64,000 bases of DNA from a virus (IMGVR_UViG_3300042541_003180:21312-85311); one strand, 5' to 3'; shown: positions 1,972 to 60,664, numbered from the stretch's first letter. A program made the numbers and translations. Notes: generated by a model not told the origin, from the sequence alone.

Positions 1972-2481
1972 ATGAAATTAAAAGTTTATATTTCCGGATA
2001 TGGTGCTGAAGTTACTCAGGGAACTCTAACAAATGAAAAGGTTGAACAAATTTATGAAAGTTACGACTCATTAGAAGAGTATTTTACTCAGTATATTGAT
2101 GATGATTTTAGTTGGTATGAAATTGATGATAATTTTCATTGCTATGGTGCTTATTTAGCAGAATCACTTATTCAAGTTATAGATGGTGATGGTAATACTA
2201 TTTATGAAAATCCTTGTGATGAGTTAGTTACTACTGAATTGTTAACAAATGAAATTTATTCCGATGAAGAAAATTCTGCAATTACTTGTGTATCTATCGA
2301 AAAAGGAACATTCTTTGAGGGGGATTTTGAAGTAGATAATTTTGATCCCGAACTACTTACTTTAGAAATTAAAGTATTAGAAGGTTTTAGAATTATTTAT
2401 AAAGTATTATATAATAATGATGAAATTGATGGTGATTTTGTATTCTCTACCGGAAAAGACTTTAATGTTTATATTGATTAA
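1972..2481 (+). CDS. Acidic hypothetical protein
   Basis: 169 aa ORF preceded by CAAC-N16-ATATAA. Confidence 0.7.
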   Translation: MKLKVYISGYGAEVTQGTLTNEKVEQIYESYDSLEEYFTQYIDDDFSWYEIDDNFHCYGAYLAESLIQVIDGDGNTIYENPCDELVTTELLTNEIYSDEENSAITCVSIEKGTFFEGDFEVDNFDPELLTLEIKVLEGFRIIYKVLYNNDEIDGDFVFSTGKDFNVYID

Positions 2482-3152
2482 TTTTTCTTTAAAGGTATCT
2501 CAGGATCTATATCAAAATTATCATTAAGATATGTTTTTAATTCATTTTCTATATAATGATCTGGTACAACCTTATCATCGTCTTCTTGACTCATTTTCTC
2601 ACTAATAAATGTTGTAAACTCATTTACTACTTCTGGTTTAAGTGCTTCGATTAACCTATCAGATACTACAAATGCTCTTGAAAATCTATCTTTTAAATTA
2701 ACTTCTCCTTCTGGTAACTTCATATAAGTATCGATAGTTTTCTTTAAGAAGTCTGTATATTTAGATTGTGGTTCTAAGTAAGTAAATATAGTATCAAATA
2801 TTTTATGTACAATACGTGAAGATCCAAATATAGTACCTACTACTGCTAGTACAGGAAAGAAAGGTGCTAGTGATAAAGGAATTGCAATTGGTAATAAATT
2901 AAATATATTTTTCTTTAATGTAGTTTTCTTTTTAGCATCAATTGCATCTTTAAAAATCGCTTTAAGTAAACCAAAAGTAAACTTCTCTCCTTTTGAGTGT
3001 AGATAAGCTCCTAAGTGACCTTGTTTAGATAAAGTAATTTGTTTTTTTAATTCTTGTTTATCAGTCACACCCATTTTAATAAGTTGTGCTTTTATATTTT
3101 TATCATAATTTTCAAGGATTAAAAAGTCGTTATATTTTTTCAGTTTATTCAT
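2478..3152 (-). CDS. Putative virion internal protein with CTS-like N-terminus and hydrophobic segment
   Basis: MNKLKKYNDFLILE N-terminus; central hydrophobic stretch LLPIAIPLSLAPFFPVLAVVGTIFG. Confidence 0.6.
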   Translation of the reverse strand: MNKLKKYNDFLILENYDKNIKAQLIKMGVTDKQELKKQITLSKQGHLGAYLHSKGEKFTFGLLKAIFKDAIDAKKKTTLKKNIFNLLPIAIPLSLAPFFPVLAVVGTIFGSSRIVHKIFDTIFTYLEPQSKYTDFLKKTIDTYMKLPEGEVNLKDRFSRAFVVSDRLIEALKPEVVNEFTTFISEKMSQEDDDKVVPDHYIENELKTYLNDNFDIDPEIPLKKN

Positions 3153-3192
3153 TATCTAAAAACAAAGATTAATTTTTACTATATATAAAATT

Positions 3193-4536
3193 ATGATGAC
3201 AGAAAAAACGATTTCCGATTTCTTATCAAATGAGTATAAAGAGTTTGCAATGTACTCTATTGAAGGAAGAGCAATACCATCTGTTGTTGATGGATTCAAA
3301 CCAACACAGAGAAAAATCATTCATATTTCCAATCAAATTTGGAGAAATGGTAGTGAGAAAAATATAAAAGTATTCCAGTTAGCAGGTAAGGTTGCGTCTG
3401 ATGCTTTTTACCACCACGGTAATACTTCATTAGAAAATGCTATTGTAACAATGGCACAAAAATTTAAAAATAATGCCGCCTTACTTGAAGAAGATGGACA
3501 ATTTGGTTCATTACGTTCTCCACAACCGGGTGCGGCAAGATATATTGGAACTAAATTAAGTGAGAACTTTAGATTGATTTATAAAGATTTTGACTTACTT
3601 GATTATAAAGAAGAAGAAGGTGAAACAATTGAACCAAAATACTTTTTACCAATCATTCCGACAGTTCTATTAAATGGTTCTTCAGGAATTGCAGTTGGTT
3701 TTGCTTCTAATGTTCTAAATAGAGACATTAAAAGCATTATTGATAGTTGTGTTAGAGTTATTGAAGGTAAAAAAATATCTAGTATTAAACCGTCTTTAAA
3801 TGAGTTTACAGGTGAATTCATACAAGATAAAGAAAATAGTAAAAGATGGATAATAAGAGGTCGTTTTCAAAAAGTAAATACTTCAACGGTTAAGATAAGT
3901 GAGTTACCACCTTCTATGACGTATGAAAAGTATGAAGAAATACTTGATAAACTGGTTGATAATAAAGATATAGTTTCATATGATGATAATTGTAAAGATA
4001 ATGTTGATTATACAATAAAGTTTAATAGAGCTGCTTTAGAGGGTTTAGATGATACTGCTTTAATAAAGCTTTTAAAGTTAGAAGAATCGTCAACAGAGAT
4101 ATTTACAACATTGGATGAGTTTGGTAAACTAAAAATATTTGAAACATCAGAAGAAATTATAGAATACTTTACCAAATTTAGATTAGAATACTATAATATA
4201 AGAAAACAACATACTTTGGATAAACTTAATAGAGAGTTAAAGATATTAAGTAATAGAGGTAGATTTATTAAAGCTATTCTAGATGAGAAGTTAAAAATAA
4301 ACAATGTGTCTAAAAATGAGATTATCAACGGTATTGATTCATTAGGACTAGAACAAATAGATGATTCATATGATTACTTATTAAGAATGTCAATTTACTC
4401 TTTAACAAAAGAGTTATTTGAGAAAATGAAGCAGGACTTCACTGCTAAAAAAGAAGAGATTAAGATACTAGAAGATACTGATCCAAAAGATATGTATCTC
4501 TTAGATTTAAGTGAATTAAAAAAGAAGTTTAAATAG
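3193..4536 (+). CDS. gp52: Type II DNA topoisomerase, T4 gp52-like (GyrA/ParC) subunit
   Basis: RAIPSVVDGFKPTQRK, YHHGNTSL, GQFGSL...GAARYI (catalytic RY), LLNGSSGIAVGFA, ISELPP. Confidence 0.95.
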   Translation: MMTEKTISDFLSNEYKEFAMYSIEGRAIPSVVDGFKPTQRKIIHISNQIWRNGSEKNIKVFQLAGKVASDAFYHHGNTSLENAIVTMAQKFKNNAALLEEDGQFGSLRSPQPGAARYIGTKLSENFRLIYKDFDLLDYKEEEGETIEPKYFLPIIPTVLLNGSSGIAVGFASNVLNRDIKSIIDSCVRVIEGKKISSIKPSLNEFTGEFIQDKENSKRWIIRGRFQKVNTSTVKISELPPSMTYEKYEEILDKLVDNKDIVSYDDNCKDNVDYTIKFNRAALEGLDDTALIKLLKLEESSTEIFTTLDEFGKLKIFETSEEIIEYFTKFRLEYYNIRKQHTLDKLNRELKILSNRGRFIKAILDEKLKINNVSKNEIINGIDSLGLEQIDDSYDYLLRMSIYSLTKELFEKMKQDFTAKKEEIKILEDTDPKDMYLLDLSELKKKFK

Positions 4537-4558
4537 TTGAACATTTGATTTTTTTCAC

Positions 4559-4566
4559 TATATTTG
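4559..4566 (+). promoter_or_regulatory. Bacteroidota-type -7 promoter element TAnnTTTG
   Basis: TATATTTG upstream of 4586. Same element at 8335, 16600(-), 26228, 48368, 54061(-). Confidence 0.65.
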
Positions 4567-59062: not shown

Positions 59063-59082
59063 AAACTATATATAAAAAAAAT

Positions 59083-59107
59083 AAAACCCAGTTAAACTGG
59101 GTTTTTT
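59083..59107 (-). terminator. Intrinsic terminator overlapping clamp loader stop
   Basis: aaaacccagtt-a-aactgggttttttt. Confidence 0.7.
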
Positions 59108-60063
59108 AATATATCTCTAAATTTTCCTATAATTGTAATTCCTAATATAAGAGGATCTGTTGCTCCTTCTAACTTAGATGAGTAATCTGCAATTACATAA
59201 GCGGTTTCAAATAATTTATTGACACTTTCTTTTTTATCTGTTATACACCAATCAATAAAAGGTTTTCCTAATAATTTAATCATCACATCAATTTTCTCAG
59301 CTCCAAAGTTTGACATTAGAAAATGATATGTTTTCTCAAAGTCTAAATCTTCATATAAAGTATTATAAAGTTCTAACTTTACTTTAGTAGAAACATTCCC
59401 TGCTCCATCACTTATTGCACCTGTATCTAAATAACTTTGTACTTCTACTAATGTAGAACGAAAGTCTGGAAACTTTTTAGTAATAATGTTGATTAAATCC
59501 TCTTTAGGTATTTCAGCATCTTCTTTAGGAAGAACTTCATTGATAATCTTTTTATAGATTTCTTGTTTTAAAAATCTTTCTTCTTCAACATTTTGACAAT
59601 CAAAACCAATTTGTTTAATTCTTGACTTTAGACCATCTGATATTTTATTGATATGGTTCGTTGTAATGATAAAACGAACATTTTTATTATATCTTTCTAT
59701 AAAAGCTTTAAAAGCGTCTTGGAAGTTCCCAGAAACTCTTTCAAACTCATCTAAGAATACATACTTAATATCTGAATTAGTATCCATCATTGGAGTAAAC
59801 TTACAGAAGTTATCGATTTCAGTTCTAAGTACATCAATGGATGTGTCCATTGAACAATTTAATTCTAAGTAAGGAGTTTCTTTCGAGTATCTACCAATTA
59901 AAATTCTAGCTAAACTAGTTTTACCGGTTCCGTAGTGACCGTGAAAGATATAGTGTTGGTTTACACCACTTTCTAATTCTTTTCTAATTCTTGGAAGTAA
60001 TATGATGTCTTCGATAGTTTTCGGACGCCACTTTTCCCATAATAATAATTTATTTACTGACAT
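59092..60063 (-). CDS. gp44: Sliding clamp loader AAA+ subunit (gp44/RFC-like)
   Basis: WEKWRPKTIEDIIL, GHYGTGKTS, VFLDEFE, FIITTN, LKSR, FPDFR. Confidence 0.92.
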   Translation of the reverse strand: MSVNKLLLWEKWRPKTIEDIILLPRIRKELESGVNQHYIFHGHYGTGKTSLARILIGRYSKETPYLELNCSMDTSIDVLRTEIDNFCKFTPMMDTNSDIKYVFLDEFERVSGNFQDAFKAFIERYNKNVRFIITTNHINKISDGLKSRIKQIGFDCQNVEEERFLKQEIYKKIINEVLPKEDAEIPKEDLINIITKKFPDFRSTLVEVQSYLDTGAISDGAGNVSTKVKLELYNTLYEDLDFEKTYHFLMSNFGAEKIDVMIKLLGKPFIDWCITDKKESVNKLFETAYVIADYSSKLEGATDPLILGITIIGKFRDILKNPV

Positions 60064-60109
60064 ATTTATCTCATTTTCTCATGAGTATATCTAAAATTAT
60101 TAAAAAAGT

Positions 60110-60664
60110 TTATACTTTTGGACGACCAATTAAGTATTCTTCTTCTGTTACAGTATGGTCTGGAAGAGTTCTTGTATAAACACCGTCACCAATCCAATTT
60201 ATTTTAGATTGTGGAAAAACTTTACTTACTGTTTGTTTATCACAATATCTACAATCTGCCGCTATAAGTATTTCTGCGGGTCTTCCAGACACTTCTATCC
60301 AGAAGCCTTCTCTGTGTAGTAGAATAATCAATTGTTTCATTAATTCTTTTCTAGCTTCTTTTGTACCATCGTGACCCCAACCAGATATTTTATGTCCGTG
60401 AGATTCTCTTGAGAATATTACAACATCTGCATGTGGATCTTTATCTATATCAACTGCAGTCCAGAAAGTTAGATCAGGATCATTAACAACTGCTTCTGGT
60501 GAAGATACTCTAACGTGACCACCAAGTGGTTTATAAGCTAGATCAATAATTTCCCATATTTCTTTTTTAAGTTTAGACCTATCTTCCATAGAAAGTTCAA
60601 CCCATTTATTTTTATCAAATAAATCGGAGAATGTAAAGTCTTCAAATAATTTAATGTAATTCAT
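60110..60664 (-). CDS. CTS-like protein, possibly GNAT-related fold
   Basis: MNYIKLFEDF; IWEIIDLAYKPLGG, GHDGT, FWIEVSG; TAATATATA 5 nt upstream. Confidence 0.5.
   Translation of the reverse strand: MNYIKLFEDFTFSDLFDKNKWVELSMEDRSKLKKEIWEIIDLAYKPLGGHVRVSSPEAVVNDPDLTFWTAVDIDKDPHADVVIFSRESHGHKISGWGHDGTKEARKELMKQLIILLHREGFWIEVSGRPAEILIAADCRYCDKQTVSKVFPQSKINWIGDGVYTRTLPDHTVTEEEYLIGRPKV

Follow-up and report, generated by a model that had tools for sequence, protein, structure and literature searches.

A recurrent N-terminal decapeptide resembling the T4 capsid targeting sequence on unrelated proteins of uncultured huge phages

A ten-residue peptide with the consensus M-[KR]-[YH]-[LI]-K-x-[FY]-E-x-F, almost exclusive to N-termini, recurs on otherwise unrelated proteins encoded in IMGVR_UViG_3300042541_003180:21312-85311, a stretch of 64,000 nucleotides (the window) that makes up bases 21312-85311 of one 85,311-bp IMG/VR virus record. 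The same peptide, or tag, starts many proteins of related huge phages, and the observation itself is solid. Likenesses to the capsid targeting sequence (CTS) of phage T4 and to repeats in the relatives' own prohead scaffold suggest a CTS-like address that mimics scaffold and loads proteins into the prohead, a reading judged here to be evenly balanced between right and wrong.

Feature positions are window positions; open reading frames (ORFs) are named by w and the window start coordinate (e.g., w57616), and the contig is the whole 85-kb record with its 105 ORFs. Its completeness is about 15% (CheckV) and its G+C content 27-28%. Three relatives were used for comparison, W01 (LR745206.1; 635 kb, complete, 950 ORFs), W02 (LR756502.1; 642 kb) and W03 (LR756501.1; 735 kb). 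The 1388-residue tail sheath of the window is 59% and 56% identical to those of the uncultured huge phages W01 and W02, and 42% to that of W03, with a conserved gene order around the sheath. To judge from its sequence, the contig is one piece of the genome of a huge uncultured phage whose core genes are of T4 type. The hosts of the clade are probably Bacteroidota, as pointed to by lipoprotein-type leaders and by TAnnTTTG promoter-like motifs, which we take to be of the Bacteroidota kind.

Recurrence of the tag at N-termini

Translation of the window ORFs gave all 19 tagged N-termini exactly as a first-pass annotation of this DNA had written them; its term "genome-wide" was an overstatement, the record being an estimated 15% or so of a genome. 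A position matrix built from 12 clear tag copies scores 21-28 bits at 11 N-termini of the contig, where the best of some 26,700 internal positions reaches 11, and two further contig ORFs score as high after correction of their starts (genome position 5883, true start M10; and w55839, shifted by 3 residues). Within the opening 8 residues of the 105 ORFs the core [LIV]Kx[FY][END]x[FLI] was counted 14 times, against 5 times elsewhere over 26,774 residues. Matches to the tag as a regular expression are found at 15 of 105 N-termini in the contig and 60 of 950 in W01, the internal rate being 1.4-2.5e-4 per position. About eight of the 19 listed tags are weak variants (MNKLKKYNDF, MKYLQTHEGF, MRYLNKREDF, MRHLKNYKLF, MKYLKEYKIF, MKWIKPRDLF, MKYIKKYNEDF and MIKRFEDF); the W01 orthologues of these ORFs have recognisable tags. 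With six more tagged ORFs in the 21 kb of contig to the left of the window, the total comes to about 25 of the 105.

The tag extends well beyond this record. Among the 950 ORF starts of W01, 82 score 5 bits or more (internal false rate 3e-4 per position), and a short form, M-x-K-K-[YF]-x-x-F-I-x-E, begins about 22 further ORFs of that genome. Searched at the DNA level with a strict pattern for M[KR]Y[LI..]KxFExF, IMG/VR gave at least 118 matching stretches, and 192 of 1093 ORFs in 80 IMG/VR loci are tagged. On the 34-kb contig L086 some 15 small ORFs form an array, each of them starting MK[YH]IKTFE[DQ]FI[NA]E, two of them as ...FEQFIAE, an arrangement that we take to resemble the variable internal-protein loci of T-even phages. 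In G001 (L053; IMGVR_UViG_3300020048_000015), 20 ORFs start with near-identical DNA for MKYLKLFENF followed by a common NQSEIDKICKKYNIQNYTINPDGSIDV module, a recent paralogue expansion that took the tag with it. A different recurrent N-terminal tag, MNWYKxIK[IL]ALP or MNWYKxAQ, begins about 15 consecutive ORFs of L199 (IMGVR_UViG_3300022916_000010), with copies of the same type in complete records of 461 kb and 499 kb; searches of the MNWYK-tag records with PF03420, the W02 protease domain or the WYKxAQ pattern found no protease or scaffold.

Unrelated bodies and selection on the peptide

The claim that the tag sits on unrelated proteins was borne out, since 103 tagged proteins stripped of their first 14 residues fell into 91 BLAST clusters. 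A single diverged paralogous family, with the tag as the best-conserved piece of a common N-terminal domain, would account for the local paralogues that do occur (w14886 and w15464, the G001 family, and 12 two-member clusters). However, tagged proteins range from 63 to 903 residues, distinct folds follow the tag (SET, NUDIX, isochorismatase-like), the information content falls to background right after residue 10, and the tag lies outside the fold. With so many clusters and no detectable similarity beyond the peptide, paralogy was rejected and is considered barely credible.

Between contig and W01, tagged proteins stay tagged in all nine orthologue pairs (body identity 23-69%), whereas the orthologues of 55 untagged proteins are all untagged too. 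No W01 homologue was found for 12 of 21 tagged contig proteins, so that the tagged set is the fast-turnover part of the genome. Sequence searches of Pfam, PHROGs and the PDB for the functions of tagged proteins were nearly empty: a Pfam family could be assigned to just three of the 81 tagged proteins of W01 (two NUDIX, one DUF6576) and, among the tagged ORFs of the window, only to the SET protein described below.

Two proteins show how the tag is joined to a body. The product of w57616 (57616..58233, + strand; 205 residues), a core gene of the clade, consists of MKHLKIYDSF, a 4-residue linker and a globular domain. The family of this protein comprises 1225 database clusters and has no counterpart in Pfam or PHROGs; the tag pattern opens each of the 118 full-length proteins within the top 120 hits, and behind it come a polar linker of 4 variable residues and an invariant beta-strand. 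In an AlphaFold2 model (predicted local distance difference test, pLDDT, 86; predicted template modeling score 0.82) residues 1-11 have pLDDT below 50 and the fold begins at residue 15. Foldseek returned weak isochorismatase/nicotinamidase-like matches (probability 0.85-0.97, template modeling score 0.4-0.5, E > 0.02); matches of the model are also cysteine-hydrolase-like, and Cys174 is invariant. In w58243 (58243..58692, +; 149 residues), MRYLKTFENF precedes a SET-domain lysine methyltransferase (PF00856, 1.2e-13), the L002 orthologue beginning MRYLKTFESF; homology with SET domains of solved structure sets in at residue 16-17, and the Legionella effector LegAS4 (2.7e-7) is among the best of these solved relatives by sequence. 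Because a conserved N-terminal addition, the w57616 model and the start of SET homology agree, the tag appears to be a conserved flexible add-on outside the fold, which is the signature of a partner-binding linear motif. A secretion signal of the Sec or lipoprotein type was ruled out, as the tag has no hydrophobic stretch; true signal and lipoprotein leaders of the same contig (e.g., MKKLLSILLFITTFMSYSQ and MRYIFFLFLFMLLSC) look different.

These proteins, and the two W01 NUDIX hydrolases, mean that the first-pass statement that no metabolic gene is tagged was not strictly true. Genes without the tag in the window include those for virion and packaging proteins (T4-type terminase, sheath, gp19 tube, gp25, gp15), for DNA metabolism (clamp loader, topoisomerase IV-A, thymidylate synthase, Mre11-like phosphoesterase), and for ClpS and a NusA-like KH protein.

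At the DNA level, synonymous codons are used alike in tags and gene bodies (Lys AAA 0.76 and 0.76, Phe TTT 0.79 and 0.76, Glu GAA 0.70 and 0.74), so that selection acts on the peptide. Tag copies in relatives use many synonymous codons, and substitutions within the tag are conservative (K/R, F/Y, L/I).

The upstream regions bear on expression. The top enriched upstream word, [AT]ATATATA, is present in about 200 of 1055 upstream regions (20-fold). It precedes the W01 portal, protease-scaffold and capsid genes and, in the window, those for TerL, sheath, tube, a fibre-like giant protein, gp25 and gp15, and is not found at the clamp loader, ThyA, Mre11-like and RlaP genes of the window. The first-pass proposal that all tagged genes lie downstream of a shared motif, directly or within an operon, stands as an association: 11 of 15 tagged contig genes have the word within 45 nt (73%) versus 34 of 90 untagged genes (38%), not all tagged genes have it, and the remaining tagged genes lie inside co-directional arrays. 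In W01 the word precedes 48% of tagged versus 20% of other genes (p = 2e-6). The host-like TAnnTTTG is rare at tagged genes (2 of 75, versus 97 of 980 untagged). Because of its association with head genes, and because the window encodes a late sigma factor of gp55-like type (w63069; phrog_234, untagged), the word is most simply read as a late promoter; its lateness can only be inferred, because it also precedes topoisomerase and nuclease genes.

Roughly half of the copies of [AT]ATATATA end only 4-5 nt ahead of the ATG and the others 17-30 nt ahead of it, examples in the window standing upstream of 12617(-), 15961(-), 49972(-), 59062(-), 60664(-), 60713(+) and 3193(+); TAnnTTTG has the same 4-5-nt peak. 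No Shine-Dalgarno sequences were evident at the contig ORFs. Since promoter motifs end so close to the start codon, many leaderless mRNAs are suggested for the clade. Such mRNAs, the missing Shine-Dalgarno sequences and the near-identical DNA of the 20 G001 copies would fit a nucleic-acid signal, in which the first 30 nt act as an initiation or mRNA-stability element or as a mobile promoter cassette and the peptide is a by-product. The codon evidence and the conservative substitutions argue otherwise, as does the equal presence of tags on leaderless-type, leadered and operon-internal genes. This explanation was rejected on the synonymous codons and is very improbable.

Likeness to T4 head proteins and proposed head loading

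Among the closest known systems is the CTS that T4's internal proteins IPI, IPII and IPIII carry (Mullaney & Black 1996; reviews PMC9026906 and PMC3012670). In the T4 record AF158101, IPII and IPIII start MKTYQEFIAE/A (here and below, a slash follows the glutamate of the cleavage motif) and IPI starts MKTFKEFTS. Within the CTS, residues 4 and 7 are important for targeting, residues 8 and 10 are important for processing, and Asp at position 10 blocks cleavage but not targeting (PMC9026906). The CTS and the tag, each about ten residues long, both form the very N-terminus of accessory proteins that evolve fast and are otherwise unrelated. They share the M-K start, the K-T-[FY]-x-x-F core and aromatics three apart, a likeness from which homology is not proven, and the short tag form ends in I-x-E as the T4 CTS does (F-I-A-E). 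Unlike the CTS, the common tag form has a 3-residue N-terminal extension (M-K-Y-L-K...) and often no cleavage site; where T4 tags a handful of head proteins (IPI-III, with Alt and gp24 having short propeptides), the clade tags about 10-25% of its ORFs. Also unlike T4 cargo, the tagged proteins are acidic on average and include enzymes, and the clade system is read from sequence alone.

Like T4, the clade phages encode a portal, a gp21-like protease, a gp23-type capsid protein, a T4-type terminase and a gp55-like late sigma factor, the first four being present in relatives of the window. In each of W01, W02 and W03, PF03420 weakly matches a gp21-like protease domain, with a gp23-type capsid gene adjoining, and the protease is fused to scaffold in one protein of 700-800 residues that contains 11-13 tandem 14-residue repeats, NLDKNIxYSEYIAE. 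The same fusion and a gp23-type capsid gene occur in the IMG/VR records G004 and G005, so that a head core of gp21/gp22 type with a gp23-type shell is present in all five, and the repeats read Y[ST]E[YH][ILV]AE throughout. Protease-domain matches by tblastn, annotated "prohead core scaffold and protease", lie in 654 phage records. In comparison with the T4 gp21/gp22 core, the protease domain is homologous (PF03420-like), the scaffold is [ILV]xE-rich and the heptad at the gp23 site is alike, T4 gp23 being cut at FGSFLTE/AEIGG; T4 gp22, however, has no such repeat, whereas the clade scaffold is a regular, CTS-like array fused to the protease. Given the T4 sequences, the T4-type head genes and the YSEYIAE scaffold repeats in relatives, the comparison with the T4 CTS made in the first-pass annotation holds.

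The heptad [FY]xx[FY][ILV]xE is enriched 4.6- to 12-fold in the first 25 residues of proteins from the contig, W01, G005 and the 80 IMG/VR loci; in phage PTm1, with other scaffold repeats and no tag, it is not significantly enriched there. An 83-residue W01 ORF at 460435-460686 (-) reads, from an internal Met, MNYEDYIAE and then three more scaffold repeats, and because it joins both elements, tag and scaffold repeat grade into each other. This ORF is a free-standing mini-scaffold of four repeat units and ends in a tail, RKKKIKNLFN, of the R/K-x-K-[LI]-x-x-[LI] type that corresponds to DUF6576 (below). Co-variation between tag and repeat is weak: Val occupies the [ILV] position in 5 of 15 tags and 3 of 6 repeats of G005, versus 1 of 23 and 1 of 11 in W01 (p = 0.03).

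From these likenesses a mechanism can be proposed. The prohead core would be the protease fused to its scaffold of tandem repeats, and the tag, flexible and amphipathic with its hydrophobic residues spaced by three (L4, F/Y7, F10), would copy the core of one repeat, [FY]xx[FY][ILV]xE. Because of this copying, tagged proteins are proposed to co-assemble with the scaffold core and to be enclosed as the shell forms. Tags ending in [ILV]xE (the short form, and about half of the window copies) would then be removed by the prohead protease, and siteless tags retained. We infer scaffold binding, packaging, cleavage and an injection or effector role for the tagged proteins from sequence likeness, and the "effector-delivery" role put forward in the first-pass annotation is purely conjectural. 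The broader proposition, that a clade-wide portable 10-mer derived from or mimicking the scaffold repeat loads about 100 unrelated proteins per genome (SET, NUDIX and isochorismatase-like among them) for delivery with the DNA, is clearly more doubtful than head loading as such and seems rather improbable; if true, it would let the injected proteome of uncultured phages be read off their sequences. Should head loading itself be right, the first ten codons of each gene would predict which proteins uncultured huge phages package and probably inject, T4 head loading would be scaled from a few proteins to at least a tenth of the proteome, and a mechanism would be supplied in the imitation of a scaffold repeat, with a possible handle for protein packaging. 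Dozens of families with unknown function would become candidates for host take-over or counter-defence in the first minute of infection.

Large heads with tens of packaged proteins, as proposed for the clade, are also a feature of the giant phages phiKZ, 201phi2-1 and SPN3US (Thomas and co-workers; PMC5694885), whose ejection and inner-body proteins have N-terminal propeptides that are believed to direct them to the prohead and that a gp21-like protease removes. Those propeptides have at least 100 residues, no shared short motif and [ASG]xE-type sites, whereas the clade reuses one portable 10-mer. SPN3US (240 kb) is credited with some 50 proteins in its head and with ejection proteins that exceed 40 MDa (PMC7411985), so that the scale of tagging is in itself no objection. 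A search of the open-access literature found no paper that links a capsid targeting sequence to huge phages.

Cleavage was only partly in accord with the first-pass claim that many tags are followed by [ILF]xE sites. Counting [LI]xE within residues 9-24, 9 of 15 contig tags have a site versus 15-23% in controls (p = 5e-4 to 1e-2); in W01 the figure is 16 of 60 (27%) versus 19-26%, which is not significant. Since the enrichment vanishes in W01, most copies of the common form would stay uncleaved, and the site was dropped as support for that form. Nearly all tags of L086 and G005 do have a site of prohead-protease type, those of G005 ending in [VIL]xE.

The capsid-targeting interpretation thus keeps its resemblance to the T4 CTS and scaffold repeats and its promoter shared with head genes, and loses the enriched cleavage site in W01 and the supposed absence of metabolic enzymes. 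Several further observations weigh against it. No head module lies on this fragment of about 15% completeness, and in G001-G003, tagged IMG/VR records, no match to a T4-type protease, scaffold repeat or capsid protein was found; G002 is rated complete, and only a distant TerL was found. No cultured phage with the tag was found: PTm1, pT24, PAU, MA9V-1 and Lak-A1 share the sheath and protease domain with the clade and yet lack it, the pattern matching only 0-2 times in each, close to chance, and in PTm1 no N-terminal motif of any kind recurs. Tagged W01 proteins are acidic (-4.9 versus -0.9 net charge per 100 residues), and T4 internal proteins are basic. The tagged enzymes (SET, NUDIX, isochorismatase-like fold) have no obvious use inside a capsid, the middle residue of [ILV]xE is Ala in scaffold repeats and Asn or Lys in tags, the promoter word stands upstream of topoisomerase and nuclease genes as well, and the tagged pair w16681 and w19392 lies directly upstream of the tail sheath gene.

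Many of the same facts suit the main rival, a linear motif read by some other partner such as a chaperone of phage or host, a protease adaptor (the tag being a degron), a factor that takes proteins to a different compartment or assembly, or a signal that stabilises or regulates new phage proteins. A conserved disordered N-terminal motif on about 10-20% of ORFs, enzymes included, would be expected of it, as would the acidic bodies, the lack of a protease site in most W01 copies and the tags in G001-G003, where T4-type head genes were not found; moreover, the phage encodes ClpS (w8878-9162). ClpS reads a free N-terminal L, F, Y or W, which M-K/R does not offer. No alternative partner is indicated by any result, and the likeness to the T4 CTS, the gp23 cleavage site and the clade scaffold repeats, the 83-residue W01 ORF that joins tag and repeats, and the association with the head-gene promoter would all go unexplained. 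The other-partner explanation is accordingly regarded as unlikely, though far less so than paralogy or a nucleic-acid signal. Should head loading be wrong, the peptide would still be among the most widespread unexplained linear motifs in phage proteomes.

Other tagged genes of the window and neighbouring ORFs

The remaining tagged ORFs of the window begin with a 224-residue protein at 2478..3152 (-) that starts MNKLKKYNDFLILE, a weak variant with ILE ending at residue 14, and that has no Pfam or PHROG family. The 188-residue product of 6739..7305 (-), MKHVKAFEKF, has a tagged W01 orthologue (MKHIRTYENY, 69% identity). At 12042..12617 (-) the promoter motif ends 4 nt before the ATG of a 191-residue protein starting MKNIKTFESFSQGEEINE, and a variant, MKYIKKYNEDFENIDE, begins the 139 residues of 13496..13915 (-). 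The 191-residue protein of 14886..15461 (-), with the weak variant MKYLQTHEGF, is a paralogue of the adjacent 165-residue product of 15464..15961 (-), which starts MKNLKLYENF and whose promoter motif ends 5 nt before the ATG.

The pair that precedes the sheath gene comprises a 903-residue protein at 16681..19392 (+), which starts MRYLNKREDFLRE, has orthologues beginning MRYLKQREEF (L002) and MKYLSKRSEY (W01) and gave no PDB or PHROG match, and a 176-residue protein at 19392..19922 (+), which starts MRHLKNYKLFLE and is 41% identical to a W01 orthologue starting MKYLKKYKIFLE. Four tagged ORFs on the minus strand follow, with 252 residues at 27610..28368 (MRYLKVYESFILDE), 194 at 28625..29209 (MKYLKEYKIFES, a variant shifted by 3 residues that is common in W01), 365 at 29214..30311 (MRYLKTYENFSEVNILE) and 192 at 30327..30905 (MKYLKLFESFSGRISE, the best match to the consensus). 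The 92-residue product of 42729..43007 (+) has the short form, MIKRFEDFINE/V, and comes closest to the T4 CTS ([FY]xx[FY]IxE).

Farther right, MKWIKTFEEL starts 329 residues at 48983..49972 (-), the promoter motif ending 4 nt before the ATG. A weak variant, MKWIKPRDLFLE, starts the 568-residue protein of 54136..55842 (+), whose W01 orthologue (55% identity) begins MRWIKNRDKF, and in the 600-residue protein of 55839..57641 (+), starting MRNLKHIKLFEAF, the tag is shifted by 3 residues; its W01 orthologue starts MKDLKHIKLFEAF. Last in the window is MNYIKLFEDF on 184 residues at 60110..60664 (-), with the promoter motif ending 5 nt before the ATG. Near it, the 427-residue ORF at 61664-62947 (+) was not counted as tagged; it begins MKNLKLELFNFKK, a start that is kept in W01 and may be a degenerate tag with a two-residue insertion.

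Some neighbouring genes are of separate interest. The ClpS adaptor homologue (8878-9162, +; PF02617, 5e-20) adjoins the T4-type large terminase gene (9189-11336, -), and the pair is kept in W01 and W02. A stand-alone 73-residue ORF at 44403-44624 (+) corresponds to a central section of the gp23 major capsid family (PF07068 positions 109-183, E = 2.8e-15). W01 has several similar small ORFs with pieces of capsid protein, one of which, at 93266-93520, is tagged (MRYLKPYKKFIENADGSSTSGMGAV) and resembles a capsid propeptide/mature junction. The 47-residue Pfam family DUF6576, which corresponds to a C-terminal R/K-x-K-[LI]-x-x-[LI] tail, was found in three window proteins (5730-6362, +; 16001-16582, -; 42275-42736, +), at the C-terminal ends of two and in the N-terminal part of the third.

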